The notes under the pieces are model-generated. The model was not told the DNA's origin. It saw nothing but the letters and a program-made list of their open reading frames with translations, and did not search any database. A stretch of 33,459 bases of DNA from Acidobacteriota bacterium (lineage in GTDB: Bacteria > Acidobacteriota > Terriglobia > Acidiferrales > UBA7541): the NCBI GenBank assembly GCA_028876695.1, contig JAGWRH010000111.1:1-33459 (forward strand), in the 5' to 3' direction. A program made the translations under genes and the position numbers. Shown here one piece after another: positions 5,326 to 33,459 of the stretch (position 1 is the first letter of the stretch; each line of letters begins with the position of its first letter).

Positions 5326-5381
5326 CGATCCCGATTGGGCACTCGCGAGCAGCGATTTGGTGCAAAGTCTGTGGCGCAGGT

Positions 5382-8366: not shown

Positions 8367-8538
8367 GCGGAAATAAGAGGAGCAGTCCGCTTCACTGGCG
8401 CCAGCGTATCACCGCGCTCCCGCCCATTCAAACGGACGGCGCAGCTACGCTGCAACCGACGGTTGGCCCGATTGCTGATTGCCGCGGGCGAGCAGAGCTC
8501 GGTCCGCCTCACGATGCATCCGAGCAGGACGAACCCTT

Positions 8539-12580: not shown

Positions 12581-12719
12581 TATTGGCCAGATGCCTTTTG
12601 CGCTTCAACGGGATGTTTCTTTCCATCGCGTCCTCGGCGATGCAGCCGGGCTGAATAGGGAGGCGCCCGACGGTCGTCGCGCGATCGGCGGCCCGGTCGC
12701 CACCGAACGATCAATACGA

Positions 12720-13739: not shown

Positions 13740-13748
13740 TGTGCTCTC

Positions 13749-16052: not shown

Positions 16053-16098
16053 CAGGAGGGGTCCTTAAAACTTCCGCGAACTCAGAACGTCGCTCACT

Positions 16099-17160: not shown

Positions 17161-17252
17161 TGCCAGAGGTGACCCCGGAACACTATGCCCAGCGGAGTTA
17201 TCGATGTCAATCAGGGTTTGCACAGCCGGACATCTCGATGATTCGAGCAGGA

Positions 17253-18557
17253 CTAATCGGCGGCAGATATGGACTGGCGCACTTGCCCAGAGTCCTCGTG
17301 CAGGCTCGACTGGCGAGGAAGCGCAGCAGACGGCAGCGGCGGAGAGATTGCAATCGAGACTTGCATCAGGAATAGAAGCGCGTTCGCGGGTATGTGAAGA
17401 TTAAAATCGACAAAACTGTGCACCAACATGCCGAACACACCGGCGATAGCTCCGGCGTGCATCGCGCCGGAAAAGTGTCCCTGCTCGGCTTGGAAATTCT
17501 TTCGCGCTTCCCTGTATAACAGCCAAAGGAAAGTAAGGCCGCAAACCGCACCTAGAATACCGGCCTCGGCGAGCGCTTCCAGATAATCGTCGTGGACATG
17601 ATCCACGATTCGCCGGTCGTACGCTGTGTCGAATTGCGGGAACACATCCACCAGCGCGCCGAGCCCGCAGCCTTTTAGTGGATGGGCCAAAAAGATGAGG
17701 ATGGCGCCATGCCCCATGGAGATGCGTCGCGCCAAGGTGACTTCGGGGTTGCTCAAGCCGGAAAATTTTTCGGCCGTTTGACCGACGCCAATCCAGGCGA
17801 CAAACCCGATCGCCACGACAACGGTAAGCATCAGTGCTGTATTGCGACTATTGCGCATTCTTCGCTGTTGGCCCGGCCGCCAGTATGCCAGGAGCAACAG
17901 GAGCGCGATCTCCAATGCAAGGCTTATAATTCCGCCGCGGGAGCTCGACAAAATATCCGCGCCCACCGGGACTACGGTTAGGAGCACCAGCAGCGGCGTT
18001 AAGGTGCTCCGAGCGCCTCGAAAAATAATCAGCGCAAGCCCGATCGGTAGAGTGAGTTCGACAAAACCGGCAAAATGATTGCGGTTCACATATGGACCAA
18101 ACGGCTTCACGCTGCTCTTTAAGCTATAGAACCAATAAATTTCGTTTCCTGATGTGAACTGTTGTGCAATCGCGAAAAGCGAGACCGCAAAGCAAAAGAT
18201 AATCACGAACCAAGCCAATTTCGACCAATGCTGGCGGGTGCGAAACGCCTGCGCAATCAAGAAGAAGATCACGAAATACGCCGTCAAGCGGAGAATTTCC
18301 GCGCGAGTGAGGAAGGACGAAGCCGTACCGTGAAACAACAGCTGAAATCCACCAATTGCGATCAGACCGAGAAACGGCCAATTCAGGGCGTTCCATCGCA
18401 CCGAGGCTTCAGGGTCGCGCCAGGCGATGCCAGCCCACCATGCGAGCAGCAGCGCCGCAGCCATTTCCAGAATCGACTGCGACCAGACGTCAACCGCGCC
18501 GAAGCTCAGCACGGCGAACGCCACGAGCGCCAGCAGGCTGAAGCGCAAAAGGGTCAC
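17253..18557 (-). CDS. O-antigen ligase / Wzy-family polytopic membrane protein
   Basis: 434 aa with about 10-12 TM helices and one larger loop, the usual Wzy_C/O-antigen-ligase layout. The GTG start at 18557 overlaps the upstream stop (GTGA, 18554-18557). The call is by topology and context. Confidence 0.75.
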   Translation of the reverse strand: MTLLRFSLLALVAFAVLSFGAVDVWSQSILEMAAALLLAWWAGIAWRDPEASVRWNALNWPFLGLIAIGGFQLLFHGTASSFLTRAEILRLTAYFVIFFLIAQAFRTRQHWSKLAWFVIIFCFAVSLFAIAQQFTSGNEIYWFYSLKSSVKPFGPYVNRNHFAGFVELTLPIGLALIIFRGARSTLTPLLVLLTVVPVGADILSSSRGGIISLALEIALLLLLAYWRPGQQRRMRNSRNTALMLTVVVAIGFVAWIGVGQTAEKFSGLSNPEVTLARRISMGHGAILIFLAHPLKGCGLGALVDVFPQFDTAYDRRIVDHVHDDYLEALAEAGILGAVCGLTFLWLLYREARKNFQAEQGHFSGAMHAGAIAGVFGMLVHSFVDFNLHIPANALLFLMQVSIAISPPLPSAALPRQSSLHEDSGQVRQSISAAD

Positions 18558-19993
18558 GGTCGTAATCCCTCATTCGACGGCATTGGCACGAGTGAGACGT
18601 CCGCGATCCAAAGGGTTCCAGAAAGTTTGTTGTCGAATAGACGACTCGGCGGACGGATCAGGCGCACGACGACGAAGTGTGTCTGCGGGCTCACTACGAA
18701 ATCGGCGTCCACAGGTGACCAGCCGTGCGATCCGGTGAAGTTGTTCGTCACTACGTCGACCGCACTGGCGTGATTCGGATCGGTAATCGAGAAGCGCGGC
18801 CCGCTTTCGGTGGTAATTGAATCGGTTCGCATCAATGCGTGGAAATGGTAGGCCTGGCCCGGCTCAACCGGGACGTATTGGTACGGCCCCTCCAGATCCA
18901 GGTTCGAGCCGCCATTGAAATCCAGCCGTAGCGCGCGCGCGCCGTCACCAGACGGAGCCGTTTCGAACGCTACATACACTCCTGTCATTGGAGTCCATCG
19001 CCAGCCGAGCCCTCCGTCGGCAAAATCCGTGACAAAATCGCCGTTCCACAAGACGGATCGCGACTCACCGTGACCCGGACGGGCTTCGCTGGAGGCGACC
19101 TGCGACCACACGCGCCGCGCATCGTCGCTTCGGTCCTGCGCAATGAGTTCATTCAACAGGGGGAACGTGCTGGAGACCGCCACACCGACCCTCGATTCCG
19201 CCACACCCGTCCAGACGGAAAGAGCTGCGTCGCATTGGTGAATGCCCGCAAAATAGTCGATTGCCCGAAGGTAAGCGCTCGTGCTCGGCGGGAGCAGCCG
19301 ATCTACAATTTGACTCGCACTTCCTGTAGCACGCCACGCGCGGGAAATCGCCATGGGCAGCAGTGACGGGTCTTCTTCAACAGCGCGACGAAGCTGCGCG
19401 AAACCGGGCCCATAGTCCGCCTGCCGTAAAAGGAAGTTGCCATAGTAGAAAGCGACCTCGGCAGAATCCGGATACACCGCTTGCGCCCGGACGAACGCTT
19501 TGGCTGCTTCCCCAGCATTGCCTGACGCTTCTTCGGCGCTTGCGAGATCCATCCAATAATCGGCGGAACGCGGATCCTGGCGCAGCGCTCTGCGATAGGC
19601 ATCAATCGCGCCTCGCAAATCGGAGCCCGCGAGTTTCCATTGACGCAGATGCCCCAGATTGTCCCACGCCGCGGCGTCGCTGGGGATCAGTGTGGCACCG
19701 CGCTCAACGAGGCTGACGTTTTGCGAGTTGATCCAGCGATTCTCGATCCAAAGCTCGATAGCCTGGAAGATCAGCACGGCGGCGATCACAGCACAGCCCG
19801 CAATTACGAAGGTGCGATGGCGCGCATTCGTAAGCGCAATGTCCATAGACGCGTAATCTGCTATGAGGATGTCGAACCGCGCAAGTGCAATTTGGAATTT
19901 GCCATGGCAATCACGCGTCGGCTCGCCAATTGTTCGGACAAGGGGCGCGGGCAACGCGCCCACCTCAATATAGCGGCGTCCTTTCGCGCTCAT
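18554..19993 (-). CDS. Membrane-anchored TPR-repeat protein with C-terminal beta-sandwich (CBM-like) domain
   Basis: N-terminal TM segment [24 protein letters not shown]-like repeats include [61 protein letters not shown]. The last ~170 aa ([20 protein letters not shown]...[10 protein letters not shown]) look like a CBM4/9-type jelly roll. The start is uncertain (ATG at 19993 or an internal Met at 19846). Confidence 0.65.
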
Positions 19994-20060
19994 TCGGACC
20001 CGAGCGGTCTATGCAGGCGGAAGAAACGCAGATACAATCGTCACATTCCTCGAATCGCGA

Positions 20061-20762
20061 GTGCTGACGCGGGAATCGTTTGTGGAGCCTATACTCAAGA
20101 CCGAGAATCTTTGGAAGGTGTACCACGCCGGCAAAGTGGAAGTTCCCGCGCTGCGCGGCGTCAGCGTGGAAATCATGCCGGGAGAGTTCGTTTCCATTAT
20201 GGGCCCATCCGGCTGCGGAAAGTCCACTCTGCTGCACGTGATCGGGGGGCTTGCGAGCGCGACCAGCGGACGGGTGCTGCTCGACGGCAACGATTTGAGC
20301 GAGATGAGCGACGCGGCGCGGACGCAGTTGCGCCGTCATAAAGTTGGATTCGTATTCCAGCGTTTCAACCTGCTCCCGACGCTCGATACGTACCACAACA
20401 TCGCGCTGGCGCAGCACCTGCACGCGAATGGATTCGATCCGCACCGGTTCGATGTCGTCGTGGGCCTGCTTGGACTGAAGGATCGGCTGAAGCATAAACC
20501 TTCGGAGTTATCGGGCGGCGAACAGCAGCGGGTGGCCCTGGCGCGCGCGATCGTGAGCGAGCCAAAGATCGTGCTGGCGGACGAACCGACCGGGAACTTG
20601 GATACACGAAATTCAGAGGCGGTGCTCGCGTTGCTGCGGCAACTGAACAAGGAATTGGGGCAAACGATCGTGATGATCACGCACAACCCGGACGCGGCAA
20701 CCTATGGCAACCGCGTGCTGCACATGCGCGATGGAGCGGTGGTAAACGGCGTGGTGCATTGA
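20061..20762 (+). CDS. ABC transporter ATP-binding protein, LolD/MacB/FtsE subfamily
   Basis: GTG start. Walker [13 protein letters not shown]-loop, signature [14 protein letters not shown], Walker [13 protein letters not shown], and H-loop ITHN. Confidence 0.9.
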
Positions 20763-21191: not shown

Positions 21192-22622
21192 ATGATGGCC
21201 CGCCCAGAAACAACAACGTCGGCCCGCGAGCGGATGAGTGCGGCGATCCGCGATTTGCAGGAGCTTCTCGGCGGCCGCGCGACCACCGCGGACATTGTTC
21301 GCGAGCACCACAGCCATGGCGAGTCATACCATCCAGCTGCCGCTCCAGACGTGGTGTGCTTTCCGCATACGACGGAAGAGGTGAGCGAGATTCTGAAAGT
21401 CAGCCGCCGGCATCAGGTGCCGGTGATCCCGTTCGGCGCCGGCACTTCGATGGAGGGGCAGATCAACGCGATTCGCGGCGGAATCACGATCGATATGCGC
21501 GAGATGAACAAGATTCTGCGCATTAGTCCCGAGGATTTGCAGGCGACAGTGCAAGCGGGCGTACCGCGGAAGGAATTGCAAAGGGCGCTGGCCAATACCG
21601 GATTCACGTTTTTCATCGATCCGGGTGCGGATGCGACGATTGGGGGTATGACGTCAACGCGTGCTTCGGGAACCACGGCTGTGCGATACGGCACGATGCG
21701 GGAAAATGTGCTGGCGCTCACCGTGGTCCTCGCGGATGGACGCGTGATCCACACGGGATCGCGCGCTCGAAAATCCGCGGCTGGTTACGATCTGACGCAT
21801 CTTTTCGTCGGCGCGGAGGGCACGCTGGGCGTGATTACCGAAATCACGCTTCGCCTGCATCCGCTCCCTGAAGCGGCAGGCGCAGCCTGCGCAACATTTC
21901 CAACGGTTCGCGACGCGGTAGAGGCGGCGATCGGCGTCATTCAGCTTGGCGTGGCGGTGGCGCGCATCGAGTTGATGGACGAGGGGCAAATCGACGCATG
22001 CAATCGATATTCGAAAACGAGTTATCCGGTTGCGCCGATTTTATTTTTCGAGTTTCACAGCGACAGCACGCGCGGCGTGAACGAACAGGCCGAAACCGTC
22101 AGGAAATTGGCTGAAGAGAGCGGCGCGACGGGATTTCAATGGTTCACATCGCCTGAAGAGCGCGAGACGCTTTGGAAGATGCGCCATGAGGCCTACTTCG
22201 CCACGCTCGCGATCCGCCCCGGCGGTAAAACGTTTACGACGGACATCTGCGTGCCGATTTCGCGGCTGGCGGATTGCATCGTGGAATCGAAGAAGGACGT
22301 GGCGGACGCGCCGTTCCCTGCCGTGGTCGTCGGGCACGTGGGCGACGGAAACTTCCACATGGCTTTCGTGCTGGATCCGAATAATCCGGCGGAACACGAC
22401 GAAGCATTGCGGCTCGAGGAAAAGATCATCCGGCGCGCGCTGGAAATGGGGGGCACGTGCACGGGCGAACATGGCATCGGCTTCGGGCGCAAAAAATATT
22501 TGCCGGTTGAGCACGGGGCGGCACTGGAAGTGATGCGAGCGATCAAGCAGGCGCTCGATCCGGATGATCGGATGAATCCCGGGAAAATGGTGGATCCACG
22601 ACCGCTGGATGGCGCGGTTTAG
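21192..22622 (+). CDS. FAD-linked oxidase, D-lactate dehydrogenase (cytochrome) / glycolate oxidase GlcD-like
   Basis: 476 aa. The FAD_binding_4 pattern is VPVIPFGAGTSMEGQ. The C-terminal FAD-oxidase domain ends in GGTCTGEHGIGFGRKKYL...MRAIKQALDPDDRMNPGK, typical of GlcD/Dld. Confidence 0.9.
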   Translation: MMARPETTTSARERMSAAIRDLQELLGGRATTADIVREHHSHGESYHPAAAPDVVCFPHTTEEVSEILKVSRRHQVPVIPFGAGTSMEGQINAIRGGITIDMREMNKILRISPEDLQATVQAGVPRKELQRALANTGFTFFIDPGADATIGGMTSTRASGTTAVRYGTMRENVLALTVVLADGRVIHTGSRARKSAAGYDLTHLFVGAEGTLGVITEITLRLHPLPEAAGAACATFPTVRDAVEAAIGVIQLGVAVARIELMDEGQIDACNRYSKTSYPVAPILFFEFHSDSTRGVNEQAETVRKLAEESGATGFQWFTSPEERETLWKMRHEAYFATLAIRPGGKTFTTDICVPISRLADCIVESKKDVADAPFPAVVVGHVGDGNFHMAFVLDPNNPAEHDEALRLEEKIIRRALEMGGTCTGEHGIGFGRKKYLPVEHGAALEVMRAIKQALDPDDRMNPGKMVDPRPLDGAV

Positions 22623-22654
22623 CGCCGTGCGTTTCTAACTGCGGTAAAATTCCT

Positions 22655-23848
22655 TCAGCAGGCCCGTTTCCAGCTTGCGGGCGCGTCGATGTACGAGCGG
22701 TCAAGATCCGCGACCGAGGCACATCCGAGGAGCTTCAAAACGCGTTCCAAGTCGGCGCGAAGGATTTGAAGCGCGCGCGCAACGCCTGCTTCGCCCGCGG
22801 CGCTGAGTCCGTAGGCATAGGCGCGGCCGATGAGCACGGCGCGGGCGCCAAGGCAGATCGCCTTGGCAATGTCACTTCCGCGGCGCACACCACCATCCAT
22901 AAGGACAACACCGCGGCTGCCGACCGCCTCGACAACTTCCGGCAATGCACGGAGAGATGCCGCGACACAATCGAGTTGCCGCCCGCCGTGATTCGATACG
23001 ACAACTCCTGCAGCGCCCTCGTCCATCGAGCGGCGAGCGTCGTCGCCGGTAAGCACCCCTTTGACGATGATCGGTCCCTTCCAGGCATCGCGCAACCACC
23101 GAACGTCGCTCCACGTGACCACCGAACGGCTCAGCGCCGCCTGGGTTTCCGCCAGCGGCATCGCTCCGCGGCCGGGAACGATCACGTTGGGCAACGTCAG
23201 CATTCCGCCATCGCGCAAGAATCCGGCTAGCCAGCTTGGCTTCGCCAGCACTTGCGGCAAATGCGGGACCTTGGCGAGGAAGCTTGGTCCGGTGAGGGCG
23301 CCTGCGCCGTTGCGGACGTCGCGCTCGCGCAAACCGAACGTGCCAGTGTCGATCGTAATCGCCAGAACCGTGAATCCCGCCTTCTGAGCCCGTTCGAGGG
23401 TAGCTTCGGCGGCTTCGCGCCCGCCGACGAGATATAGCTGATACCAACGCGGCCCGCTGGAAGCCTGCGCTACATCTTCAAGCCGGCTGCCGGAGATGGT
23501 GGAAAGTACGTAACCTACGCCCGCCTTCCCGGCGGCCCGCGCCGCGACCACTTCACCGCGCGGCCACATCATTCGCGTGAATCCAACCGGCGCGAGCAAC
23601 AGTGGCATTGAAAGATTGCCGCCCAGTACCTCGGTGCGGATGTCGCATCGGTCCACAAACAGTGCGTTGCGTGGGCGGAATGTGACGTCCTCGAATGCGC
23701 GGACGTTTTCGCGCAGTGTGACTTCGCCCTCGGCGCCGCCATCGACGTACTCGAAGACTGCACGCGGCAACCGCCGCTGCGCCGCGCGGCGCAGATCCGC
23801 GATATTGACGACGCGCGGCAGCGCGACTCTGCGTTCCGCGCGCGTCAT
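22655..23848 (-). CDS. FMN-dependent alpha-hydroxy acid dehydrogenase/oxidase (LldD / mandelate dehydrogenase / glycolate oxidase family)
   Basis: The track ORF runs to 24307 and overlaps the divergent ThDP gene. I chose the ATG at 23848 (MTRAERRVALPRVVNIADLRRAAQRRLPRAVFEYVDGGAEGEVTLRENV). The diagnostic motif VVSNHGGRQLD is present. Product length is 397 aa. Confidence 0.9.
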   Translation of the reverse strand: MTRAERRVALPRVVNIADLRRAAQRRLPRAVFEYVDGGAEGEVTLRENVRAFEDVTFRPRNALFVDRCDIRTEVLGGNLSMPLLLAPVGFTRMMWPRGEVVAARAAGKAGVGYVLSTISGSRLEDVAQASSGPRWYQLYLVGGREAAEATLERAQKAGFTVLAITIDTGTFGLRERDVRNGAGALTGPSFLAKVPHLPQVLAKPSWLAGFLRDGGMLTLPNVIVPGRGAMPLAETQAALSRSVVTWSDVRWLRDAWKGPIIVKGVLTGDDARRSMDEGAAGVVVSNHGGRQLDCVAASLRALPEVVEAVGSRGVVLMDGGVRRGSDIAKAICLGARAVLIGRAYAYGLSAAGEAGVARALQILRADLERVLKLLGCASVADLDRSYIDAPASWKRAC

Positions 23849-23995
23849 CGCTGGTCGCCCTCTCTCGGCGAAGATACCACTCGATTGAGAAGGTGCAAGG
23901 AAACCCCTTTCGCGCGGCCATTCTACCCGGTATTCTCTAGATTTTGTTGGGCAGATATATGATCGGCAGCGCTGAGCGGTTCGAGGAGACCAGCA

Positions 23996-25642
23996 ATGAA
24001 GGCCGGTGACGCGATCGCGGAAATCCTCAAACGCGAGGGCGTCGAGATTATTTTTGGATACCCCGTAAATCACCTGCTCGAATCCGCGGCCGCGCTTGGG
24101 ATCCGCCCGATCATCGTGCGACAGGAGCGCGTTGGACTGCACATGGCGGATGCGCTTTCGCGCCTGAGCAGCGGCCGAAAGCTCGGGGTGTTCGCCATGC
24201 AGCACGGCCCGGGCGCTGAGAACTCGTTTGGCGGAGTGGCGCAGGCATTCAGCGAATCCGTGCCGATACTGGTGCTGCCGATGGGTTATCCGCGCCGCAT
24301 TGCGCAAATTGATCCCAATTTCCGCTCTGCGGTGAGCATGCAGACCGTGACGAAGTCCGCTGAAGCAATCTGGTCAACCGCCGAGATCCCAAACATCTTT
24401 CGCCGCGCGTTTTCGCGCCTTCGCAACGGACGCGGCGGGCCGGCAGTTATCGAGATACCGATGGACGTTTTTGGCGAGGAAGTTCCCGAGCCAATCGCGT
24501 ACGGGCCCGTTGTTTCCGCGCGGTATGCTCCGGATCCAGCGGAGGTCCGGCGCGCGGCACAGGCTTTGGTCGAAGCGAAAAACCCCGTCATCTATGCCGG
24601 GCAAGGCGTCCATTGGGCGCTCGCTTGGCGCGAACTGAAATCGCTGGCCGAGATGCTGGGCGCACCGGTGGCCACGAGCCTGCAAGGAAAGAGCGCGTTC
24701 CCGGAAAATCATCCGCTCGCGCTCGGCGCCGGAGGAAATTCGTTTCCGGCGACGGTGCCGCATTTTCTGCGGAACGCCGACTGGATTTTCGGCGTTGGCT
24801 GCAGCTTTACGCAAAGCACGTTCGCTGTGGCCATGCCGCCCGGCAAGAAGTTTATTCATGCCACGCTCGATCCGAATCACATCAACAAGGACGTGCCCGC
24901 TGAGATTGCTCTAATCGGAGACGCGCAGTTGACGCTTGAAGGGCTGTGCGGCGAACTGACCAAACTTTTGCGAATGCCTCAGCCGAGGTCATGGCCTGTG
25001 GAGGCTGAAATCGCGCGCGTCCGCGAGGCGTGGCTTGCCGAATGGTCCTCGCGCATTAATTCGGACGAGGAGCCGTTCTCGCCATACCGCGTACTACGCG
25101 ATTTGCAACGCACCGTGGATGTGGCTAACACAATCATCACGCACGACGCTGGGAGCCCGCGCGATCAGCTCGCGCCATTTTGGGTCAGCACGGAGCCGCT
25201 CAGTTATATTGGGTGGGGAAAGACGACGCAACTCGGCTATGGCCTCGGACTGGCGATGGGTGCGAAGCTCGCTTGTCCCAATAAGCTCTGCATCAATGTG
25301 TGGGGCGACGCGGCAATCGGCTTCACCGGCATGGATTTTGAAACCGCCGTGCGCGAACGGATCCCGATCCTCTCAATCCTCCTCAATAATTTCAGCATGG
25401 CCATGGAAATCCCGATCATGCCGATATCGACGGAAAAATATCGCTCGACGGATATTTCGGGCGACTACGCAGCCATGGCGCGTGCGTTCGGCGGATATGG
25501 CGAGCGGGTGACGTCGATCAAGGAAATCGTACCGGCGATTCGGCGCGGGATCGAGCAGACGCGCAAGGGCGTACCGGCCCTCCTGGAATTTATTACGAAG
25601 AAGGAGACCGCGCTATCGCGTCAATATCATTCGCCGAGCTAG
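23996..25642 (+). CDS. Thiamine-diphosphate-dependent enzyme (acetolactate synthase / benzoylformate decarboxylase superfamily)
   Basis: 548 aa with the three-domain layout. The N-terminal PYR domain has GVEIIFGYPVNHLL...HGPGAENSFGGVAQAFSESVPILVL. The ThDP motif is GDAAIGFTGMDFETAVRERIPILSILLNN. SD GAGGAG lies 8 nt upstream of the ATG. Confidence 0.9.
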   Translation: MKAGDAIAEILKREGVEIIFGYPVNHLLESAAALGIRPIIVRQERVGLHMADALSRLSSGRKLGVFAMQHGPGAENSFGGVAQAFSESVPILVLPMGYPRRIAQIDPNFRSAVSMQTVTKSAEAIWSTAEIPNIFRRAFSRLRNGRGGPAVIEIPMDVFGEEVPEPIAYGPVVSARYAPDPAEVRRAAQALVEAKNPVIYAGQGVHWALAWRELKSLAEMLGAPVATSLQGKSAFPENHPLALGAGGNSFPATVPHFLRNADWIFGVGCSFTQSTFAVAMPPGKKFIHATLDPNHINKDVPAEIALIGDAQLTLEGLCGELTKLLRMPQPRSWPVEAEIARVREAWLAEWSSRINSDEEPFSPYRVLRDLQRTVDVANTIITHDAGSPRDQLAPFWVSTEPLSYIGWGKTTQLGYGLGLAMGAKLACPNKLCINVWGDAAIGFTGMDFETAVRERIPILSILLNNFSMAMEIPIMPISTEKYRSTDISGDYAAMARAFGGYGERVTSIKEIVPAIRRGIEQTRKGVPALLEFITKKETALSRQYHSPS

Positions 25643-25660: not shown

Positions 25661-27712
25661 TCAGTTACCGGACGGCCGGGCCGGCTCCTCTGGGCCCGCA
25701 GCCGGCACGACCACAATCTGGCCGTACTCCCACGGATACTCCTTGCAGTGGTAGGCGTAGGTACCCGGCTTGTCGAACGTATGCTGCCCGATGTCGAGTG
25801 GATGGAGCGTACCCGTTGACCACGACCCGTCCACGGCAACGATCGTATGGTCGAGCACGCCGTTGTTTCGCCACATGACCCGGGTGCCAACGGTAACTTG
25901 CGCGCGATACGGATCGAACTCGTATTCGTCCTCGATCACGTGCTGGCCGGTAAGGCCCATGTCGCGTACGGCTGAAGCCGTAAGGATCGTATCGGTCTTG
26001 GTGACGGCCCCGGAGAAATCCTGCTGGGGAGGGGTCGGCGGCGCGGGCCGCTGCCCGATTGTTCCGCCCAGCTTGAACGCCCACACCTGGCCGCCCGCAA
26101 TGCTGACGATGTACTGCTCGCCCGCATTTTCAAACGCGACCGGCGGCCCGCCAATGGGCGACCCCGTCTGAAATTGCCACCGCAGAGAACCATTTGAGGC
26201 GTCGTACGCCTGCAGATTGCCATCGCCGGCCATCTGAAAAACCAAACCTCCCGCGGTCGCTAGGGCTCCGCTCGGTTTGCTATCGTGAAATTCCTTTTTC
26301 CAGGCGATCCGGTTCGTGCGGCTATCGATGGCGGCCAGAACTCCATAACCCATTTTGTTCAGACCCGGCACGCGATTGCTAAAACCCAGGCTGAAAAAGT
26401 CCGGATCTTTTGTCCGTCGAAACCACTGCAGCGCCGCATTTCCAGTAGCGTAAAAAAAATGCGTTTGCGGATCATAGGCCATCGGCGTGGAACGCATCCC
26501 GTACACGGGCTCGAGCAGATTCGGCTTGTCCACCGATCCGGGCGTAAAGAAGCATCCCAGATCGAAACCGGCGGGTATCTTTTGAGTTTTCCAATAATCG
26601 CAATCGGGAAGAACGGGTTCGGCACCGACGGGGTACGGTTGGGTTTTGGCCGTCTTTTGGTACGGATCCTGCGGTACGCGCCGCTCTTCAATGCGGCCGA
26701 GCGGTTTTCCCGTTTCGCGGTTGAACATAAACAGATATCCGTCGGTTCGGATTGCCGCGATCGCCTTTACCGTTTGACCGTTCGCGTCCGCATCGAACAG
26801 CACCGGAGATTCGGCGATGTCCGCTTCCCAAATGTCGTGGTGAACCACCTGGTAATACCAGCGCAGGTTGCCGGTTTTAGGATCCAGCGCGATCACGCAA
26901 TCGGTATAGAGATTATCCCCCGGCCGATATTCGCCGCCGTATTGCGGAACGGCATTGCCGGTCACGTAGAAGTCCACTCCGAGTTGCGGATCGTAAACTC
27001 CTTCAAGCCAAACGGCGCCGCCGCCGTGCAACCACGCGTTGTTATTCTTTGGCCATGTGTTGGAACCCGGCTGTCCCGGATTCGGCACCACATAAAAGCG
27101 CCATGCCTCTTTGCCGGTCATGGCATCGAATGCCACGATTTGTCCACGGTATCCATAATCCGCGTTCGTGCCGATCGACACGAGACCATCAGCAAACAAT
27201 GGAGCGCCGGAGGCGCCGCCGGTTGGTTCACCGGAGGGCGCAGCGAGCGAAACTTTCCAAACCGGTTCGCCGGTCTTCTCGCGCAGCGCGATCAAGCTCG
27301 CGTTAGCGGGATGCCACAGGCCGACGAAAACCATACCGTCGCCCACGGCCACGCCTCCATGCGACGGCTCCGTGCCGGCCGGAGCGTGATACTGCCATGC
27401 GACCTTTCCGGTGTTTATGTCGTACGCGTACACGTACGGCGGCGCGGTTACGAACATCAGCCCCTGGTCGACCACAGGCGTGGCGCGAGAACTCGGCGCC
27501 GGTACCATTTTGTCGGACACCCACGCCGCTCCCAGCTTGGTGACATTCTGGGCGTTGATGTCGCCGAGCGGAGAATATCGCTGATTATCCGCACCGTTCA
27601 CGGTGGACCACTGCGCGCTCGACGGCTGCGCGGCAATCGCGATGCATACGAGCACCGCGACCACCAACGCCCAAAACCGTGCCGCCTGCCATTTCCGCTG
27701 AGTTCGACGCAT
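25661..27712 (-). CDS. Periplasmic PQQ-dependent dehydrogenase (8-bladed propeller) fused to a C-terminal cupredoxin-like domain
   Basis: Sec signal MRRTQRKWQAARFWALVVAVLVCIAIAAQPSSA-QW. The quinoprotein pattern is GDNLYTDCVIALDPKTGNLRWYYQVVHHDIWEAD, with repeated W-motifs. The last ~93 aa (25664-25942) read FDPYRAQVTVGTRVMWRNNGVLDHTIV...GTYAYHCKEYPWEYGQIVVV, a plastocyanin/amicyanin-like layout. SD GGAGG is upstream. Confidence 0.85.
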   Translation of the reverse strand: MRRTQRKWQAARFWALVVAVLVCIAIAAQPSSAQWSTVNGADNQRYSPLGDINAQNVTKLGAAWVSDKMVPAPSSRATPVVDQGLMFVTAPPYVYAYDINTGKVAWQYHAPAGTEPSHGGVAVGDGMVFVGLWHPANASLIALREKTGEPVWKVSLAAPSGEPTGGASGAPLFADGLVSIGTNADYGYRGQIVAFDAMTGKEAWRFYVVPNPGQPGSNTWPKNNNAWLHGGGAVWLEGVYDPQLGVDFYVTGNAVPQYGGEYRPGDNLYTDCVIALDPKTGNLRWYYQVVHHDIWEADIAESPVLFDADANGQTVKAIAAIRTDGYLFMFNRETGKPLGRIEERRVPQDPYQKTAKTQPYPVGAEPVLPDCDYWKTQKIPAGFDLGCFFTPGSVDKPNLLEPVYGMRSTPMAYDPQTHFFYATGNAALQWFRRTKDPDFFSLGFSNRVPGLNKMGYGVLAAIDSRTNRIAWKKEFHDSKPSGALATAGGLVFQMAGDGNLQAYDASNGSLRWQFQTGSPIGGPPVAFENAGEQYIVSIAGGQVWAFKLGGTIGQRPAPPTPPQQDFSGAVTKTDTILTASAVRDMGLTGQHVIEDEYEFDPYRAQVTVGTRVMWRNNGVLDHTIVAVDGSWSTGTLHPLDIGQHTFDKPGTYAYHCKEYPWEYGQIVVVPAAGPEEPARPSGN

Positions 27713-27921
27713 GTTCCGTACGTCCTCCCGATACCTGAGTGCGTGTGCCGAAAAAATCCGGCGCGGTCACCGCCGCTTCTGTATACTTGCATCGTTCTAT
27801 TGTTGTCAAGACACCGTTGCCTCCCTGCCGGGCAGTCGCGTGGCCGCGGAAAAAGCTTCGGCGTTGAGCGCGGGCGCGGAGCTCTCTCTGATTAAGGAAG
27901 CAATTCGGGAGACGATTGACG

Positions 27922-28497
27922 ATGAGCAGCGACGGCGCGCGGCCATTCATGCGTCGGACAAAAGTTGAATCCGCCCCTATCCGAACAGGGCGCCTCGCGA
28001 GCGTGGAGCACCGGTATGACCGCGCTCCGCACATCGACTCGCTGATCCAGTTGGTGTCTGTGCGCGTCGTCCGGCTCTCGGACTTACTTCTGCGCATCGG
28101 CAAGATTACATTCGAGCGGCGATTCGGCGTAAAGCTAACGGAGCTCCGGATTCTGATCATTCTCGGGGCTTTTCATTCCATTTCGGTGAACGAAATAAGC
28201 CGCAGAACGCATATCGACAAGGCCTGGATCAGCCGTTCGCTGCGAGGACTGCTCGGCCGCAAGTTGATTAAGAGGACGCCCCATCCCGCCGATAACCGCG
28301 CTTCCTCGTTGTCCTTGACGAAGAAGGGCGAGGAGCTGTTACGGCGTATCGCGCCGGTCGCGGAGGAGTATCAGCGCCAGCTGCTTGAGGGACAGAAAAG
28401 CCGCGACGTGGAACAAATGCTCGACCTGCTGGCGGAACGCGCCGAAGGAATTTACCAGCACGAAAGTCGGCAGCAGAAGCAGGTGGCGCGCCGTTAG
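27922..28497 (+). CDS. MarR-family transcriptional regulator
   Basis: The winged-helix core is LTELRILIILGAFHSISVNEISRRTHIDKAWISRSLRGLLGRKLIKRTPHPADNRASSLSLTKKGEELL. I prefer the ATG at 27922, which follows GGGAGA at 9-nt spacing. The track start at 27916 is TTG. Confidence 0.85.
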   Translation: MSSDGARPFMRRTKVESAPIRTGRLASVEHRYDRAPHIDSLIQLVSVRVVRLSDLLLRIGKITFERRFGVKLTELRILIILGAFHSISVNEISRRTHIDKAWISRSLRGLLGRKLIKRTPHPADNRASSLSLTKKGEELLRRIAPVAEEYQRQLLEGQKSRDVEQMLDLLAERAEGIYQHESRQQKQVARR

Positions 28498-28548: not shown

Positions 28549-30339
28549 TTAGGCCCATTCGTCAATCGAAGTGCCACGGTCCGGCATAAAATCCGTGGCG
28601 AACCACACGCTTGCGGTCTTTCCGCCGGTGACGATCGCGTGAATGGCATTCGCATTCGCGAACGGTTTGATCAGCGTATCGCCGGTAACACCCAGCCAAT
28701 CCGCGTACGGTTTCAGTCCTTGGCGCGCCAGCGGAGCGAGCATGCTGGACACAATCGAATTCCCCCAGTACGACTCCGCGGTCTTCTGAACGTTCTGCGA
28801 GAGCCACTGACCGAGCGCCGCCTTGGTTTTGAAACCTTGCACGCCACTCAACAGATCCGCAACGGATGGGTCCATAATCAGCGTGGCGCCCATCCCTGAA
28901 AGCGACGACATATAGTCGCGCATCAGGAATTGCGGTGCGTAGTGCTGCTCCACCCAACCCGTGCTATTGATGAAATTCCAGCCGGTGAAGATCGTCACCA
29001 CGCTGTCCGTTGCCTGATGCCCCAACTGGACGTGCAAAGGCTGCCATCCCGGCGGCAGAGCCTCCTCGTTTTCGGCGAAGCAGAGGTTGTCGTACCGGAG
29101 CGGGTTGCTGAGCGAAGCGAAACCGGTCACGCCCTCGACGTATCCCTGAATGACTTTGTGTATCAGGGTCATCGAGCGGCCGATAACTGCGTTCGCCTCA
29201 TTGTCCGGGCCCAGAGCGCCCATCCCGGAGTTCATGCCGATCTTGTTGCGGATCGGACCGTTGACCACGACCATCTGCGCGATCGAGGTCGTGGAATCCT
29301 GATACGGCACTCGAGTTGAGAGCGCCAGGATGACCGGCAGATATTCCGGCCTCGCGCCGGCCATAACGGCAATTGTGGCGACTTTCTCGACGGTGAACGG
29401 GCGGCGCGAGCCGAACGTCCCCGCGGCGCTTTTCACCACTTCATCCGGCGCGTGGCTGGTGCCCTTGAGCATGGCGGCGACCCGCTCCGGCGTGGGAAGG
29501 ATTACCGGGTTGTAGTCCGTCCAGCCCTTCTGCCGAAACAGGTCCTGCAGGTTGTCCTGGCTATCCGGCCGAAGCATGCGCGGCTCGGCCGCAGGCGCAT
29601 CTGGCGACGGTCCTGACAAATTCTCCCTGGCCGAGAGCGGTTTTGTAAGCCCATCGACAATTGCGCGCATAAAAGGCGCGCCGCTGACGGTATCTTTGCC
29701 GTGGACGTACGACGCCAGCACCGAGCGCGGCTGGCCGGAGAACGGAAAAGGTACGCCGACAAAGCGCAGCGGCATGCCGGTGTTGTACTGGAAATTAGCT
29801 CCGAGCCCGAACGACACGACGTTTGAGCCCGCAAGAGACACGGTTGGGATGTGATACTTCTGCTCGATTTCTCCAGCTTCGCGGCTCACGGCCCCGACGC
29901 AGCCGTGTCAACCGGCTACACCGATGACGACGCCGTCGCCGTGATTCCCGGCGATCTCCTTCCACAGGCCCGGATCATCGGTAACGAAGTTGCCGGCCTT
30001 GATCTTGATGATTATCTTTGCGCTGGGAATGTTCTGCGCAAACCATTTCTGGATTTCTTCCAGGATGCCGTCGTTCTGCTGCATCCCTCCCCAGTCTGTA
30101 TCCACCAGGTAAATGGTTTTACCTTCGAGCGTGCTGAGCCGCGGCGCAAGCGGAACGCGGTCCGCGAACCTCGTTGCGATCGCGGGATTCAGCACCGACA
30201 CCATACTGTTATCCGACCCGCAATTTGCGGCTTCTGGGACACGTTTTGAGGCTGCCGGAGAGGTACGAGCAAATGACGGGCTAACCGCCGCGAGGGCCGG
30301 ACTTACACCGAGCAGCGCCAACATTTTTCGTCGATCCAT
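28549..30339 (-). CDS. Putative selenoprotein, paralog 1 (~596 aa): Tat-like signal, GrdB/PrdB-like UxxC redox module, ~450-aa module of unknown family; in-frame UGA at 29910-29908
   Basis: Track ORFs 29908-30441 and 28549-29889 share one frame (both upper bounds are divisible by 3). Hand translation across the junction gives ...GDGVVIGVAG-TGA-HGCVGA-GTG(V)-SREAGEIEQKYHIPTV. The GTG used by the track as a start is only 6 codons after the TGA. I chose the ATG at 30339 because GGAGG lies at 30350-30346 with a 6-nt spacer. The N-terminus reads MDRRKMLALLGVSPALAAVSPSFA. The coding potential of both halves is certain. Read-through as Sec is an inference. Confidence 0.7.
29880..29907 (-). promoter_or_regulatory. 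Candidate SECIS-like hairpin(s) immediately 3' of the UGA of paralog 1
   Basis: The mRNA reads UGA CACGGCUGCGUCGGGGCCGUGAGCCGCG. Option A: CACGGC (29907-29902) pairs perfectly with GCCGUG (29892-29887), leaving a 9-nt loop. Option B starts 11 nt after the UGA: CGGGGC (29896-29891) pairs with GCCGCG (29885-29880) with one G-G mismatch and loop CGUGA. Folded by eye only. Confidence 0.4.
29908..29910 (-). other. In-frame UGA, candidate selenocysteine codon (motif GVAG-U-HGC)
   Basis: Plus-strand tca at 29908-29910. The flanking codons are GGT (Gly) on the 5' side and CAC GGC TGC (His-Gly-Cys) on the 3' side. Paralog 2 has a UGA at the same motif position. Confidence 0.7.
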
Positions 30340-30376: not shown

Positions 30377-32140
30377 TCAGTGGGCACCGTTACTTGGTTC
30401 ATCCGGCAGGCCGCAACTTCCGTCGGCGCAGCCGTCTGCAAGCGGCTTCGCCCGCCATTTATCGACAGAAGCGCTGACGGTGTGCGAAAAATCCGAAACC
30501 TTCCACATTGGGCTCGTTTCGCCCCCGACGACCACGATGTTCATGTTTTCCGGCTTATCATATGGGGCAATCAGCGCGTCTTTTGGCAATTTCTTCCAGG
30601 TAGCGTAAGGTTCCACGCCTTGAATCGCAACCGGACCCATGAGCATGTCGATCAGGTCGTTGTCCCAAAATTCGCCCGCGGGCATTTTGAAGTTTAATGA
30701 AAGCCACCGGCAAAAATCGAGCTTGGTTTGGAAACCTTCGTCGTGCTTCAGGTGGCGCGCTACGAGCGGGTCGAGTATGAGCGTCGCGGCAGAGAACAAT
30801 CCGGGCAGCGGCCGCAATTGGGTGAACATGTCCTCGCCAATCGATCGACGCGATGATCCGACGACATTGTTGATAAAATTCCAGCCGCGGAAGAGGCTGA
30901 CTGCGCTTTCATGCGCCTCGTAGCCCTTTTGCGCATGAAACGGTTCCCAGGGACTCCGTTCCTCGTTTTCCGCCACGCACATGTTGTTGTACCCGATCGG
31001 ATTGCCCTGCGACGTCCAGAACTGCTTTCTCAACCGGAAATAGCCCCAATTGATGCTCAGAAGAGTCCAGGCGCGGCCGATTACGGAATTGGCGAGCGCT
31101 CGGGGGCTGAATGCGCCAATACCGGAATTCATCTCGATCTCGTTGCGAATGGGACCGTTCACCAAAAGCATGGTCGCAAACGGGGTGGTCGAGCCGGGAA
31201 TCGAAGGCTGACCCGTTGAGGCCACGGCCAGAAGAACGGGCAGATGCTCGGGCCGCGCCCCGGCCATCACCCCAACAATCGCCACCATCTCGACCGTGAA
31301 TTTCAAGTGTTCGCGCGTGTCGTGAAGATAGATCTCGCCGACCACCTCGTCCGGCGCATGTGTAGTGCCGGTGAGCATATGCCCAACGCGCTCCTCGGTA
31401 GGCAGGATGATCGGAAGACCGTCGGTCCAGCCGCGCTCGTAGAACAGGCGCTGCAGATTGTCCTCTGTATCGGGTTCCAGCAGTGCTTGCCGTACGCCGG
31501 TCCGCGTGACTGGCACGTACGTATCGGCGCGCTCATCTTCTCCAAGCGGTTTGGTGAGGGCTTCAATGATCTCGTCAGTCACGCTGCGATGGCTTGCCGG
31601 ATCCGTTCCCTCGATGTATTTGCGAAGCACCGCCGCGGTCATTCCCGCGACCGGATGCGGTGTGTATGTAAAGCGGAGCGGAACGCCATGGAAGCGGCGA
31701 TCGTCCGCAAGAACGGCGGCGAATTCGAGGGTGGACACCGGCGCCGTCGGAATTCCGTATTCCTGTTCAAGCGTGCGGGAGCAAGTGGCAACTGCCACCG
31801 CGCAGCCGGGTCAACCAGCGACGCCCAAAATCGCGGCGTCACCGTGCTCCTCGATTTCCAGCCACAAATCTTTGGTGTCGTCGCGAAACACGTTGCCCGG
31901 CTTTCGCCGGCGCACGGTCTTCACGGCCGGCATATGCTCCTGGAACCATGACTGCATTTCATCCAGAAATTTGCCGCTGCCGCCGAATCCTGTATCGACC
32001 AGATAAACGGTCTTGCCTTTCAGCGTATCGAGACGTGGCGCCATGCCTGACGATGCGCCTCTTCCTGGTGGCGCTCCATCGGGAGTGATCGTTCGATAGC
32101 CTTCGGGATTCAACACTGCGGACGTTACTTGCGTAGCCAT
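30377..32140 (-). CDS. Putative selenoprotein, paralog 2 (~587 aa): UxxC redox module plus ~450-aa module of unknown family; in-frame UGA at 31813-31811
   Basis: Track ORFs 31811-32140 and 30377-31798 share one frame (both upper bounds = 1 mod 3). The junction reads ...DAAILGVAG-TGA-PGCA-GTG(V)-AVATCSRTLEQEYGIPTA. The ATG at 32140 is preceded by AGGAG (32152-32148) with a 7-nt spacer. The protein aligns along its whole length with paralogs 1 and 3. Confidence 0.7.
31785..31798 (-). promoter_or_regulatory. Candidate SECIS-like hairpin 12 nt 3' of the UGA of paralog 2
   Basis: The mRNA reads UGA CCCGGCUGCGCG GUGGC AGUU GCCAC U. This gives a perfect 5-bp stem (31798-31794 / 31789-31785) and a tetraloop AGUU containing G-U. 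A flanking G-U wobble is possible. Folded by eye only. Confidence 0.45.
31811..31813 (-). other. In-frame UGA, candidate selenocysteine codon (motif GVAG-U-PGC)
   Basis: Plus-strand tca at 31811-31813. The flanking codons are GCT GGT (Ala-Gly) on the 5' side and CCC GGC TGC (Pro-Gly-Cys) on the 3' side. Confidence 0.7.
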
Positions 32141-32198: not shown

Positions 32199-33459
32199 TC
32201 AGATCCACTCATCGACCGGCGCGCTCTTGACGTATCGCATCCCGCCGTAATCCCAATACAGATTATTCGACGATCCAGTGACGAGGACGTTGATTTGCGC
32301 TTTGCTTCGGAAATGCGGCGTCGATTCGTCCTGGCTCTGATAGAGAAACTGGGTAAGCTTCTCGACCGTGTCGTAGCCCTCGCTCTTCATGTAATTGGCC
32401 ACGGCCGGGCTAAGGACGGCCAGGATTCCGAAGAGTTGATCCTGATCGTTCGAGATGTTTTTCAGTTCCTGGGCGAAGTTCATATCTTTCGACCATATCG
32501 CGTGTCTGGAGTTCTTGGCCGAAATCACGCCCCAGCCCTCGAAGATGCTCACCACGTTGTCGCCCGCCTTGAATCCGTGGCGGGCGCTGAACGGCTGCCA
32601 TGGCGATTCTTTTTCGTTTTCGGCAATAATGATGTTGGCGTAATTCATCGGATTCCCGATCACGCCCATGTAAGTCTCACCGGCCTTGCCGCAATTTCCT
32701 CCGTTCAGCGAAAGCAGCGCATAGGCCCGGCCGATGGTGGCATTGGCGTGGCTGAAAGGCCCCAGTGCGCCGATGTGATAATTCAGGCCGATCTGATCGC
32801 GAATCGGACCGTTAATCACAACCGCTTCGGCAAACGAATTGTCCGAGCTTGAGATGGATTCCTTGCCGATGGATGCAATTGCCAAGATCACCGGAAAATA
32901 TTTCGGGTCGGCTCCCGCCATCACGGCATTCACCGCTACCTGCTTCACCGTGTACGACCAGTCTTCATAGACCCCTGGTGTCGGCGACATACGCCCGACG
33001 ATCTCGTCGGGCTTTCGGCTGGTGCCCTTGAGCATCGCTTCAACACGGTCCTCGGTCGGAAGCACGATGGGCAGGTAATCCGTCATTCTTTTTTCGATGA
33101 ACAAGCGCTGCAGGTTATCGGAGCTGTCGGGACCGAACGTTGCCGCGCCTGCGGATTGCGGGATCGTCCGGCTCGCGGTGTCTTCGTTGTTGAGCGGTAC
33201 CGTCAGTTGGTCAACGATCTCCTTCATCACGGCTTTGCCAGTGACGGGATCATTGCCGTCGATCACGTCGCGCTGGAGTTGTTCCGCCGTCTTGCCCCAG
33301 ACGGGCGATTTCACATAGGTGAATCGCAAGTGCGGCATACCTTTTTTCGCGGCATTTTCCTGCACGAGCTGCTGGAAATACTGGGTGATGATCGAGACGG
33401 TCGGCTTGTGATATTCGGATTCGAAGAAGACGTTATGGCCAACGACCGCTGGCGAGCAG
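32199..33459 (-). CDS. Paralog 3 of the same family; 5' end runs off the window at the UxxC motif
   Basis: The track calls GTG at 33365 as the start, but the frame stays open to the window edge. Hand translation of 33458-33366 gives CSPAVVGHNVFFESEYHKPTVSIITQYFQQL, followed by VQENAAKKGMPHLRFTYV... The Cys at 33458-33456 aligns with the Cys of U-x-G-C in paralogs 1 and 2. Base 33459 (C on the minus strand) fits the GGC Gly codon seen in both other copies. Confidence 0.8.
   Translation of the reverse strand, partial: CSPAVVGHNVFFESEYHKPTVSIITQYFQQLVQENAAKKGMPHLRFTYVKSPVWGKTAEQLQRDVIDGNDPVTGKAVMKEIVDQLTVPLNNEDTASRTIPQSAGAATFGPDSSDNLQRLFIEKRMTDYLPIVLPTEDRVEAMLKGTSRKPDEIVGRMSPTPGVYEDWSYTVKQVAVNAVMAGADPKYFPVILAIASIGKESISSSDNSFAEAVVINGPIRDQIGLNYHIGALGPFSHANATIGRAYALLSLNGGNCGKAGETYMGVIGNPMNYANIIIAENEKESPWQPFSARHGFKAGDNVVSIFEGWGVISAKNSRHAIWSKDMNFAQELKNISNDQDQLFGILAVLSPAVANYMKSEGYDTVEKLTQFLYQSQDESTPHFRSKAQINVLVTGSSNNLYWDYGGMRYVKSAPVDEWI

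Follow-up and report, generated by a model that had tools for sequence, protein, structure and literature searches.

The UGSC family has been counted among the most abundant selenoprotein families of aquatic and ocean metagenomes since 2008 (PMC2398784), and a 2026 review still places it among the families with largely uncharacterised functions (PMC13188914). In general terms, the canonical UGSC system comprises two separate genes: (i) one that encodes a selenoprotein of approximately 150-185 amino acids (aa) with the motif D-U-G-S-C, in which U is selenocysteine (Sec); and (ii) one annotated as "hypothetical protein". The DNA studied here (hereafter, the window) is a stretch of 33,459 nucleotides (nt) from an Acidobacteriota bacterium (GenBank assembly GCA_028876695.1, contig JAGWRH010000111.1) which carries three tandem genes, on the minus strand, with a common conserved module. 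In contrast to the canonical system, in the window this module of 345 aa, which is the "hypothetical protein" of other genomes, is fused to the UGSC domain, and the motif reads U-H-G-C or U-P-G-C.

A fusion of this kind has probably been noted before. Zhang and Gladyshev (2008) mention "UGSC/Unknown_1", in which UGSC is joined to a conserved domain without assigned function that, in some organisms, is also found alone (PMC2398784, Fig. S1A). From this description, their domain is probably the module described here. Their paper does not report the obligatory adjacency, the thioredoxin-reductase neighbour or the structure presented below, and the obligatory UGSC-module partnership was not found in the literature searched.

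Two further systems invite comparison. The first, by analogy only and from general knowledge, is that of the glycine/D-proline reductase selenoproteins B, GrdB and PrdB (with GrdE/PrdA), which also bring together a U-x-x-C selenoprotein, a substrate-specific partner, a thioredoxin-reductase-type flavoprotein as the source of reducing power and several substrate-specific paralogs. But UGSC-module proteins have no sequence relationship with them, lack a pyruvoyl proprotein partner and are present in aerobic soil Acidobacteriota, Alphaproteobacteria and haloarchaea, some of them with export signals. The second is a cluster of "redoxin domain-containing proteins" (the P0213 cluster) which carry the same C-terminal module after an N-terminal CxxC-type redox domain; their redox domain, however, has another fold and is followed by a PGCG[SA]K linker without counterpart in the window proteins.

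It is tentatively proposed, with chances put somewhat below even, that UGSC and module (plus, in cytoplasmic forms, a dedicated thioredoxin-reductase paralog) might constitute an unrecognised and very widespread class of Sec/Cys reductases, with a fold absent from the PDB, paralog families specialised (in the manner of glycine/proline reductases) for different small-molecule substrates, and some folded selenoproteins exported to the periplasm through the twin-arginine translocation (Tat) pathway.

UGSC domain, selenocysteine codon and module boundaries

The open reading frame (ORF) of paralog 1 (28549-29889, minus strand, 446 aa) lies six codons downstream of the TGA (29908-29910) at which another ORF ends in the same frame; reading through this TGA gives ...GVVIGVAG-U-HGCVGAV... 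The ORF of paralog 2 (30377-31798, minus strand) is likewise in frame after a TGA (31811-31813), with GVAG-U-PGC as its read-through product. Paralog 3 (32199-33458, minus strand) leaves the window at its 5' side and starts with ...C-SPAVVGH: its 5' end, including the U/C position, falls outside the window, and only the resolving Cys lies inside.

All three products score above the gathering cut-off (25 bits) of PF24696, the Pfam UGSC model (paralog 1 with 37.8, paralog 2 with 64.1 and paralog 3 with 29.1 bits); in the 596-aa protein of paralog 1, the match extends from residue 49 to residue 208. Furthermore, a UGSC profile built for this analysis aligns continuously across the TGA (29632-30150). 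The curated model NF041046, "UGSC family (seleno)protein", yields 19.1, 53.5 and 23.6 bits for paralogs 1, 2 and 3, below its cut-off of 125; these scores set the window proteins apart, as relatives of long form, from the canonical short protein (~147 aa) of that model.

In each window protein, the UGSC domain corresponds to the N-terminal ~170 aa and ends approximately 90-100 residues past Sec. Since those first 90-100 aa after Sec complete the UGSC domain, the unnamed module has ~344-345 aa. A preliminary description of this DNA, made from the sequence alone, had attributed to it ~450 aa, a figure which is here corrected as the first ~100 aa after the TGA are UGSC; it had also called the N-terminal part "GrdB-like", a label that does not stand given the PF24696 scores (29-64 bits) and the lack of any GrdB or PrdB match at E<=1. 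On the other hand, its observation of a conserved module common to the three paralogs is borne out: all the motifs quoted there are present, and the module of paralog 1 is 45% identical to that of paralog 2 (BLASTP, E 3e-97) and 40% identical to that of paralog 3 (E 9e-60), a sequence likeness far beyond chance. The features of the three genes, all of them on the minus strand, are as follows:

28552-29583, minus: module of paralog 1, ~344 aa (module profile match, 28555-29580)
29632-30150, minus: UGSC domain of paralog 1, which spans the Sec codon (PF24696, 37.8 bits, and own UGSC profile across the TGA)
29908-29910, minus: in-frame TGA of paralog 1, GVAG-U-HGC (Cys at that column in continuous ORFs of relatives)
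29880-29907, minus: hairpin directly 3' of the paralog 1 TGA, candidate Sec insertion sequence (SECIS) (fold -24.7 kcal/mol, z -1.6)
30268-30339, minus: putative Tat-like signal peptide of paralog 1, MDRRKMLALLGVSPALAAVSPSFA (sequence pattern only)
29491-29526, minus: module motif GWTDYNPVILPT, with D, P, P and T nearly invariant (conservation over 107 sequences)
29335-29367, minus: module motif VMAGARPEYLP, whose Ala is Cys (VMAGC) in most stand-alone members
29248-29265, minus: module motif VNGPIR, with G and P invariant or nearly so
29176-29196, minus: module motif ANAVIGR, with N, G and R nearly invariant
29062-29082, minus: module motif CFAENEE, with the first Glu nearly invariant
30452-31486, minus: module of paralog 2 (module profile match, 30452-31480)
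31541-32044, minus: UGSC domain of paralog 2 (PF24696, 64.1 bits, and profile match)
31811-31813, minus: in-frame TGA of paralog 2, GVAG-U-PGC (read-through of ORFs)
31781-31801, minus: SECIS-like hairpin of paralog 2, GCGGUGGC-AGUU-GCCACUUGC, ~10 nt 3' of the UGA (consensus fold, 11 UPGC-type loci)
30413-30430, minus: Cys pair in the C-terminal tail of paralog 2, C-A-D-G-S-C (tail kept in orthologs)
32202-33143, minus: module of paralog 3, variant with a shorter C-terminal subdomain (profile matches, 32337-33137 and 32202-32336)
33189-33458, minus: UGSC domain of paralog 3, C-terminal half (PF24696, 29.1 bits; profile positions 80-161)

Three observations support the decoding of these TGA codons as Sec: (i) Cys at the same column in homologs; (ii) the UGSC profile that runs across the TGA; and (iii) a covarying hairpin 3' of the UGA. 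Regarding the first, the U/C-x-x-C of the UGSC family is present here as U-H-G-C and U-P-G-C, at the column where relatives show UGSC, USTC or CSTC, and uninterrupted homologs have Cys instead of Sec at that very column (for instance, CSTC in L019, L025 and L034). In-frame TGA codons account for 89 U-x-x-C motifs among the 107 UGSC hits, across phyla; alphaproteobacterial copies have CSTC. With respect to the hairpin, the UPGC-type form (~10-12 nt past the UGA, apical GGUC or AGUU) has compensatory double changes in six of its eight pairs, over 11 loci. The hairpin of paralog 1 is weak when taken alone, at the values listed above, and its sequence is kept in the UHGC orthologs L001 and L007. 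An Rfam scan of the window returned no RNA gene and no family matching either stem-loop, and the window itself contains no selA, selB, selC or selD.

Gene callers cut relatives (e.g., L001, L002 and L169) at the TGA into a "UGSC" ORF of ~95-140 aa and a "hypothetical protein" of ~445 aa. Because gene calls split the selenoproteins in this way, the database entries of 445-446 aa correspond to truncated products.

Conservation within the module was computed on alignments totalling 107 sequences. The residues which are nearly invariant throughout the family are not Cys: D and T of GWTD..P..PT; G of VMAG; G-P of NGPIR; N, G and R of AN..IGR; E of AENEE; and W.P. The polar ones among them (D, T, T, N, R, E) map to the N-terminal subdomain of the module. 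As for Cys, stand-alone forms of the module conserve the one in VMAGC (19/19 in one sample and 36 of the 55 scored in another) and usually have another before [AG]ENEE. In the window copies, all three have Ala at the VMAGC position, and the residue before AENE is Ile in paralog 3, as had been pointed out. Paralog 2 ends in ...ADG-C-ADGS-C-GLPDEPSNGAH, a tail which paralogs 1 and 3 do not have; the tail pattern C-x-D-G-x-C-G-[LI]-P is present in 8/11 UPGC-type fusions and, in addition, in UDGC-type fusions of Chloroflexota, Desulfobacterota and Bacillota. The absence of a conserved Cys, claimed in the preliminary description, is thus correct inside the window modules, but not for the C-A-D-G-S-C tail of paralog 2 nor, family-wide, for the VMAGC Cys of stand-alone forms. 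Similarly, U/C-x-x-C as the sole obvious redox centre does not extend to paralog 2, where the conserved C-terminal CxxxxC tail is a further candidate centre.

The module could not be assigned to any named family, in agreement with the preliminary description. The modules of the three window proteins gave no Pfam or NCBIfam match at E<=1; among the 107 relatives searched against Pfam at E<=10, no family besides UGSC recurred in more than two members; and phmmer plus two profile searches of all PDB sequences returned nothing below E 0.05. Structures were modelled with AlphaFold2 for the module of paralog 1 alone (predicted local distance difference test, pLDDT, 92.9; predicted template modelling score, pTM, 0.92) and for P0129, the closest full-length Cys-type relative (564 aa, CPGC), which at full length folds as one confident unit (pLDDT 93.7, pTM 0.93). 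A Foldseek search of the PDB, which like the profile searches could have placed the module in a characterised family, gave 0 matches at E<=1e-3 for the module model (best template modelling score, TM, 0.24), likewise none at that threshold for P0129, and hence no confident relative. The predicted fold is a candidate new one, with no match in the PDB. From the sequence searches, the module is a real and very widespread domain without name, Pfam or NCBIfam model, solved relative or described function, and merits a family definition in Pfam or NCBIfam.

The only folds that full-length P0129 retrieved from the PDB are flavodoxin-like, and all of them come from its UGSC half. This half is predicted to adopt a beta-alpha-beta three-layer arrangement with flavodoxin, lumazine synthase and the flavodoxin domain of flavodiiron proteins as nearest PDB neighbours (weak matches, E >= 1e-3). 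The flavodoxin-like fold of the P0129 model differs from the thioredoxin-like fold suggested for UGSC in 2008 (PMC2398784).

Several candidate relatives of the module were considered and rejected. The class I (Fe-S) fumarate hydratase fold was the best, and the only recurring, Foldseek match (20 entries, E 2e-3 to 6e-2, ~355 columns); it was ruled out by (i) a TM of 0.2-0.24 with a root-mean-square deviation of ~17 A; (ii) a probability of 0.08% in the hhalign comparison of the module profile with E. coli FumA; and (iii) the absence from the window modules of the three Cys expected as cluster ligands, no Cys being common to the three copies. Toblerone-fold cyclic amide hydrolases and PurM-like folds (ThiL, PurL, SelD, HypE) appeared at Foldseek E 0.2-1.4 and were regarded as noise. 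A profile match to arginine deiminase (E 0.055) was confined to the variable C-terminal part, and an NCBIfam match to the 5-oxoprolinase PxpC (E 0.097) was rejected.

Obligatory pairing of the module with UGSC

The association between both parts was examined by searching six-frame translations, with TGA read as U, with the UGSC and module profiles. With the module as starting point, the search covered the window and 86 further loci, and each module copy that no contig end truncates has UGSC, either fused in frame upstream or adjacent. Starting from stand-alone DUGSC proteins, the module is adjacent in 60 of 80 metagenome loci and the other 20 are cut by contig ends; among these 80 loci, none has UGSC without the module despite at least 1300 nt on both sides. 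Single look-ups (L002-L006, L169 and L172) agree with this pairing, as does Halalkalicoccus jeotgali, with the gene order module - UGSC (GDCGSC, so named by the Prokaryotic Genome Annotation Pipeline, PGAP) - module (UGSC, WP_008415592; modules, WP_008415593 and WP_238532951). The UGSC-module pairing is obligatory and, since it holds from both starting points, the classical UGSC selenoprotein and the "hypothetical protein" are two halves of one system. Wherever there is enough flanking DNA, UGSC is accompanied by this one domain; what was a lone redox motif can be defined as half of a two-part enzyme, for which an electron donor is likely.

In a separate lineage, the place of UGSC before the same module is taken by a thioredoxin-fold CxxC domain (P0213, P0220, P0237 and P0262). 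P0213 matches AhpC-TSA with 28.5 bits (Pfam cut-off, 26); the motifs CATC, CPTC, CPVC and CPTT are found among the four proteins (the first three in P0220, P0237 and P0262), and the PGCG[SA]K linker is conserved in all of them. The presence of two unrelated dithiol domains before the same module argues that the module needs a thiol or selenol partner. As a minor observation, the C-G-S of the linker echoes the U-G-S of UGSC.

The family is large. With clusters defined at 50% identity, an exhaustive HMMER search of 1.84 billion cluster representatives identified 3,389 of them at E<=1e-3 and, under the stricter E<=1e-10, 1,847; in addition, word-indexed searches for the module gave >6,000 and >7,900 matches (saturated). 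The names supplied by the sources for the module are all "hypothetical" or "uncharacterized protein". Cys-type fusions are named from their N-terminal half, "UGSC family (seleno)protein" (PGAP, P0131), and one variant is a "redoxin domain-containing protein". The hosts include Acidobacteriota (the closest to the window, with 79-93% identity), Chloroflexota/Dehalococcoidales, Actinomycetota, Alpha-, Beta- and Gammaproteobacteria, Desulfobacterota, Bacillota, Latescibacterota and haloarchaea. Among the cultured ones are Neorhizobium galegae, Paracoccus versutus, Variovorax, Pseudonocardia acaciae and Halalkalicoccus jeotgali.

The following architectures can be differentiated: (i) Sec-type UGSC-module fusions, cut at the TGA to ~445 aa by gene callers; (ii) Cys-type fusions of ~560 aa (CPGC, CSTC, CGSC); (iii) fusions in which the UGSC motif has been lost (TVTS, MDTL and others); (iv) stand-alone modules of ~350 aa; (v) module-module tandems of 717 aa; and (vi) a module-UGSC-module protein of 1,226 aa with copper amine oxidase N-terminal repeats (Cu_amine_oxidN1). 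Both the U/CxxC motif and the VMAGC Cys have been lost in P0124, P0127, P0141, L030 and L082, which are candidate non-redox members or pseudo-enzymes. Two module genes with one UGSC gene between them are present in haloarchaea and some bacteria (in plasmid 2 of H. jeotgali, L168, positions 4279-6978), and L073, L129, P0162 and P0246 are further cases with two modules (flanking UGSC, in tandem or as module-UGSC-module). These double-module arrangements hint that the module works as a dimer or pseudodimer.

A possible Sec/Cys-dependent oxidoreductase and its alternatives

A survey of ortholog gene neighbourhoods, as recommended in the preliminary description, recovered the UGSC pairing and, in 24 of 84 loci, a thioredoxin-reductase paralog within 5 kb. 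In 16 of them this gene lies immediately next door (<=260 nt) and, with a single exception, shares the strand; alphaproteobacterial loci such as L064 (Caenispirillum bisanense), L059 (Bradyrhizobium) and L052 are examples of such adjacency. The paralog scores 287-312 bits with TIGR01292, below the equivalog cut-off of 343. None of the fusions with this neighbour has a signal peptide. Approximately one quarter of the UGSC-module fusions have Tat-like, Sec-type or lipobox leaders, recognised by sequence pattern only, and in the loci of leader-bearing fusions no thioredoxin-reductase paralog is adjacent. The leader RRK-L-L-x-x-G-x-SPAL of paralog 1 recurs in seven orthologs (L001, L007, L041, L076, L077, L080 and L081), and other leaders are found in L008, L009, L011, L030, L035, L038, L045, L058, L066, L072 and L074. 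Such putative leaders imply that these are exported selenoproteins; in general, Tat leaders are often a sign of a bound cofactor.

A redox role appears plausible, as suggested both by the thioredoxin-reductase-like neighbours and by the exchange, in one lineage, of UGSC for a thioredoxin-fold CxxC domain. In the most likely reading, which is given even chances, both parts would make up a Sec/Cys-dependent two-electron oxidoreductase, with substrate binding or catalysis falling to the module and the redox work to UGSC. In this reading, each window gene encodes one two-part selenoprotein, composed of a UGSC redox domain, predicted to be flavodoxin-like and with Sec-x-x-Cys at the start of a helix after a beta strand, and a two-subdomain module of ~345 aa. 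Both parts are encoded by separate adjacent genes in some lineages (a D-U-G-S-C protein of ~180 aa and a "hypothetical protein" of 350 aa) and fused in others. The substrate would be bound in a module pocket formed by the conserved GWTD..P..PT, VMAG, NGPIR, AN..IGR and AENEE motifs; the redox domain would act on it through its Sec (or Cys), which would end in a Se-S bond with the resolving Cys; and, in cytoplasmic forms, this bond would be re-reduced by the dedicated thioredoxin-reductase paralog or by the general thioredoxin system. By analogy, the CxxxxC tail of paralog 2 may act as an additional C-terminal redox shuttle. The tandem genes, which differ in the context of U-x-x-C and of which one has a Tat-like leader, probably encode variants for different substrates or compartments.

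A number of points speak against this interpretation. Its chemistry is read from context only, as the module has no characterised homolog, and the sets of loci are biased toward relatives of the queries. The quarter of fusions predicted to be exported would be beyond the reach of a cytoplasmic thioredoxin reductase. The remaining neighbours vary by lineage (short-chain dehydrogenases/reductases, uncharacterised thiamine pyrophosphate (TPP) enzymes, Amidohydro_2, ATP-binding cassette (ABC) and SsuA-like binding proteins, pyrroloquinoline quinone (PQQ)-type propellers), and clustering of the neighbourhoods revealed no coherent metabolic pathway. The VMAGC Cys of stand-alone forms is Ala in all three window copies, and complementarity between VMAGC and U/CxxC, sought among fusions, followed no clean pattern. 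Finally, P0124 (TVTS), P0127 (MDTL), P0141 and L030 keep the module with neither U/CxxC nor the VMAGC Cys: the module can consequently persist without an obvious redox centre, and redox chemistry may not be universal in the family.

The alternative that survives best is nonetheless considered unlikely: the module would be a non-redox enzyme (hydrolase, lyase or isomerase), with the UGSC or thioredoxin-fold domain as its built-in reductant or redox regulator. The relatives without U/CxxC and VMAGC are in line with it, Cys is not among the invariant residues (D, T, N, R and E), and the VMAGC Cys of stand-alone forms is a possible target for reduction by the UGSC protein. Nevertheless, a near-universal pairing that survives the swap of the redox domain fits a mechanistic need better than an optional regulation; Sec is costly and typically catalytic; and the Cys that would be the regulatory target is absent from the window copies.

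Improbable, in turn, is a sulfur, selenium or metal(loid) relay, in which UGSC, with its flavodoxin-like scaffold, would play the part of a DsrE/TusD-like carrier and the module that of acceptor or donor, without reduction of an organic substrate. The resemblance of the UGSC model to flavodoxin-like three-layer folds and the MarR regulator adjoining the genes are compatible with such a relay, and export signals on approximately one quarter of the fusions would suit detoxification. However, no rhodanese, cysteine desulfurase, metallochaperone or metal transporter is recurrent in the neighbourhoods, no DsrE or Tus model matches at E<=1, and the thioredoxin-reductase neighbour suggests turnover of a disulfide or selenenylsulfide.

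It is very improbable that the window proteins are divergent selenoprotein-B reductases of the GrdB/PrdB type, with the module as their substrate-binding part. Their U-x-x-C order is the one listed for PrdB (PMC2398784, Table 2). The logic of selenoprotein, substrate-specific part and thioredoxin system is similar, and the expansion in paralogs is, from general knowledge, reminiscent of the glycine, sarcosine, betaine and proline reductases; yet PF07355, TIGR01917/01918 and GrdE/PrdA models match neither the three proteins at E<=1 nor the 107 relatives at E<=10, their N-terminal domain falls within PF24696, and no pyruvoyl-proprotein partner (GrdE/PrdA) is found among the recurrent neighbours of about 170 loci surveyed for neighbour clusters. 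Hardly credible, lastly, is the reading of the paralog 1 TGA as a genuine stop, with an independent 446-aa ORF starting at GTG 29889 and a separate small protein upstream: it is what gene callers annotate, and most database entries have those 445-446 aa, but the stop would halve a domain whose profile is continuous across it, uninterrupted homolog ORFs have Cys at the exact column, the hairpin after the UGA covaries and the same in-frame TGA recurs in the 89 motifs across phyla.

If true, the reductase-class reading would give the abundant UGSC selenoprotein a partner and an enzymatic context. In any case, Cys-type forms are available in cultured hosts (Neorhizobium galegae, Paracoccus versutus, Pseudonocardia and Halalkalicoccus jeotgali) and can be expressed without Sec machinery; therefore, UGSC function is directly testable.

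Other genes of the window

The neighbours of the fusion genes in the window are a MarR-family regulator, a PQQ-type propeller, a TPP enzyme, a flavin mononucleotide (FMN) dehydrogenase and a GlcD-like oxidase. The regulator is divergent from the fusion genes:

27916-28497, plus: MarR-family regulator (Pfam MarR and MarR_2; syntenic with the fusion genes in the related genome L001)

The PQQ-type beta-propeller (25661-27712, minus strand, 683 aa) has "acido-empty-quinoprotein group A" (TIGR04528) as its best NCBIfam match, below cut-off. It presents an extra C-terminal extension of ~120 aa, ending in ...HCKEYPWEYGQIVV, which is possibly cupredoxin-like. Propellers of the PQQ type are found near fusions in four other loci.

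An oxidoreductase cluster (21192-25642) adjoins the fusion genes and encodes (i) a GlcD-like flavin adenine dinucleotide (FAD) oxidase; (ii) an FMN-dependent alpha-hydroxy-acid dehydrogenase, with an unexplained N-terminal extension of ~170 aa; and (iii) a TPP enzyme which belongs to the uncharacterised PRK06154 group (864 bits). An uncharacterised TPP enzyme is also encoded upstream of the UGSC and module genes of L003.

Apparently unrelated to the fusion genes, an exopolysaccharide-type cluster (5382-20495) encodes Wzz/GNVR tyrosine-kinase, Poly_export/SLBB and Wzy_C proteins, a GT2-methyltransferase fusion, an epimerase/dehydratase and an ABC-2 permease, together with a 994-aa fusion of PP-binding, AMP-binding and acyltransferase domains.

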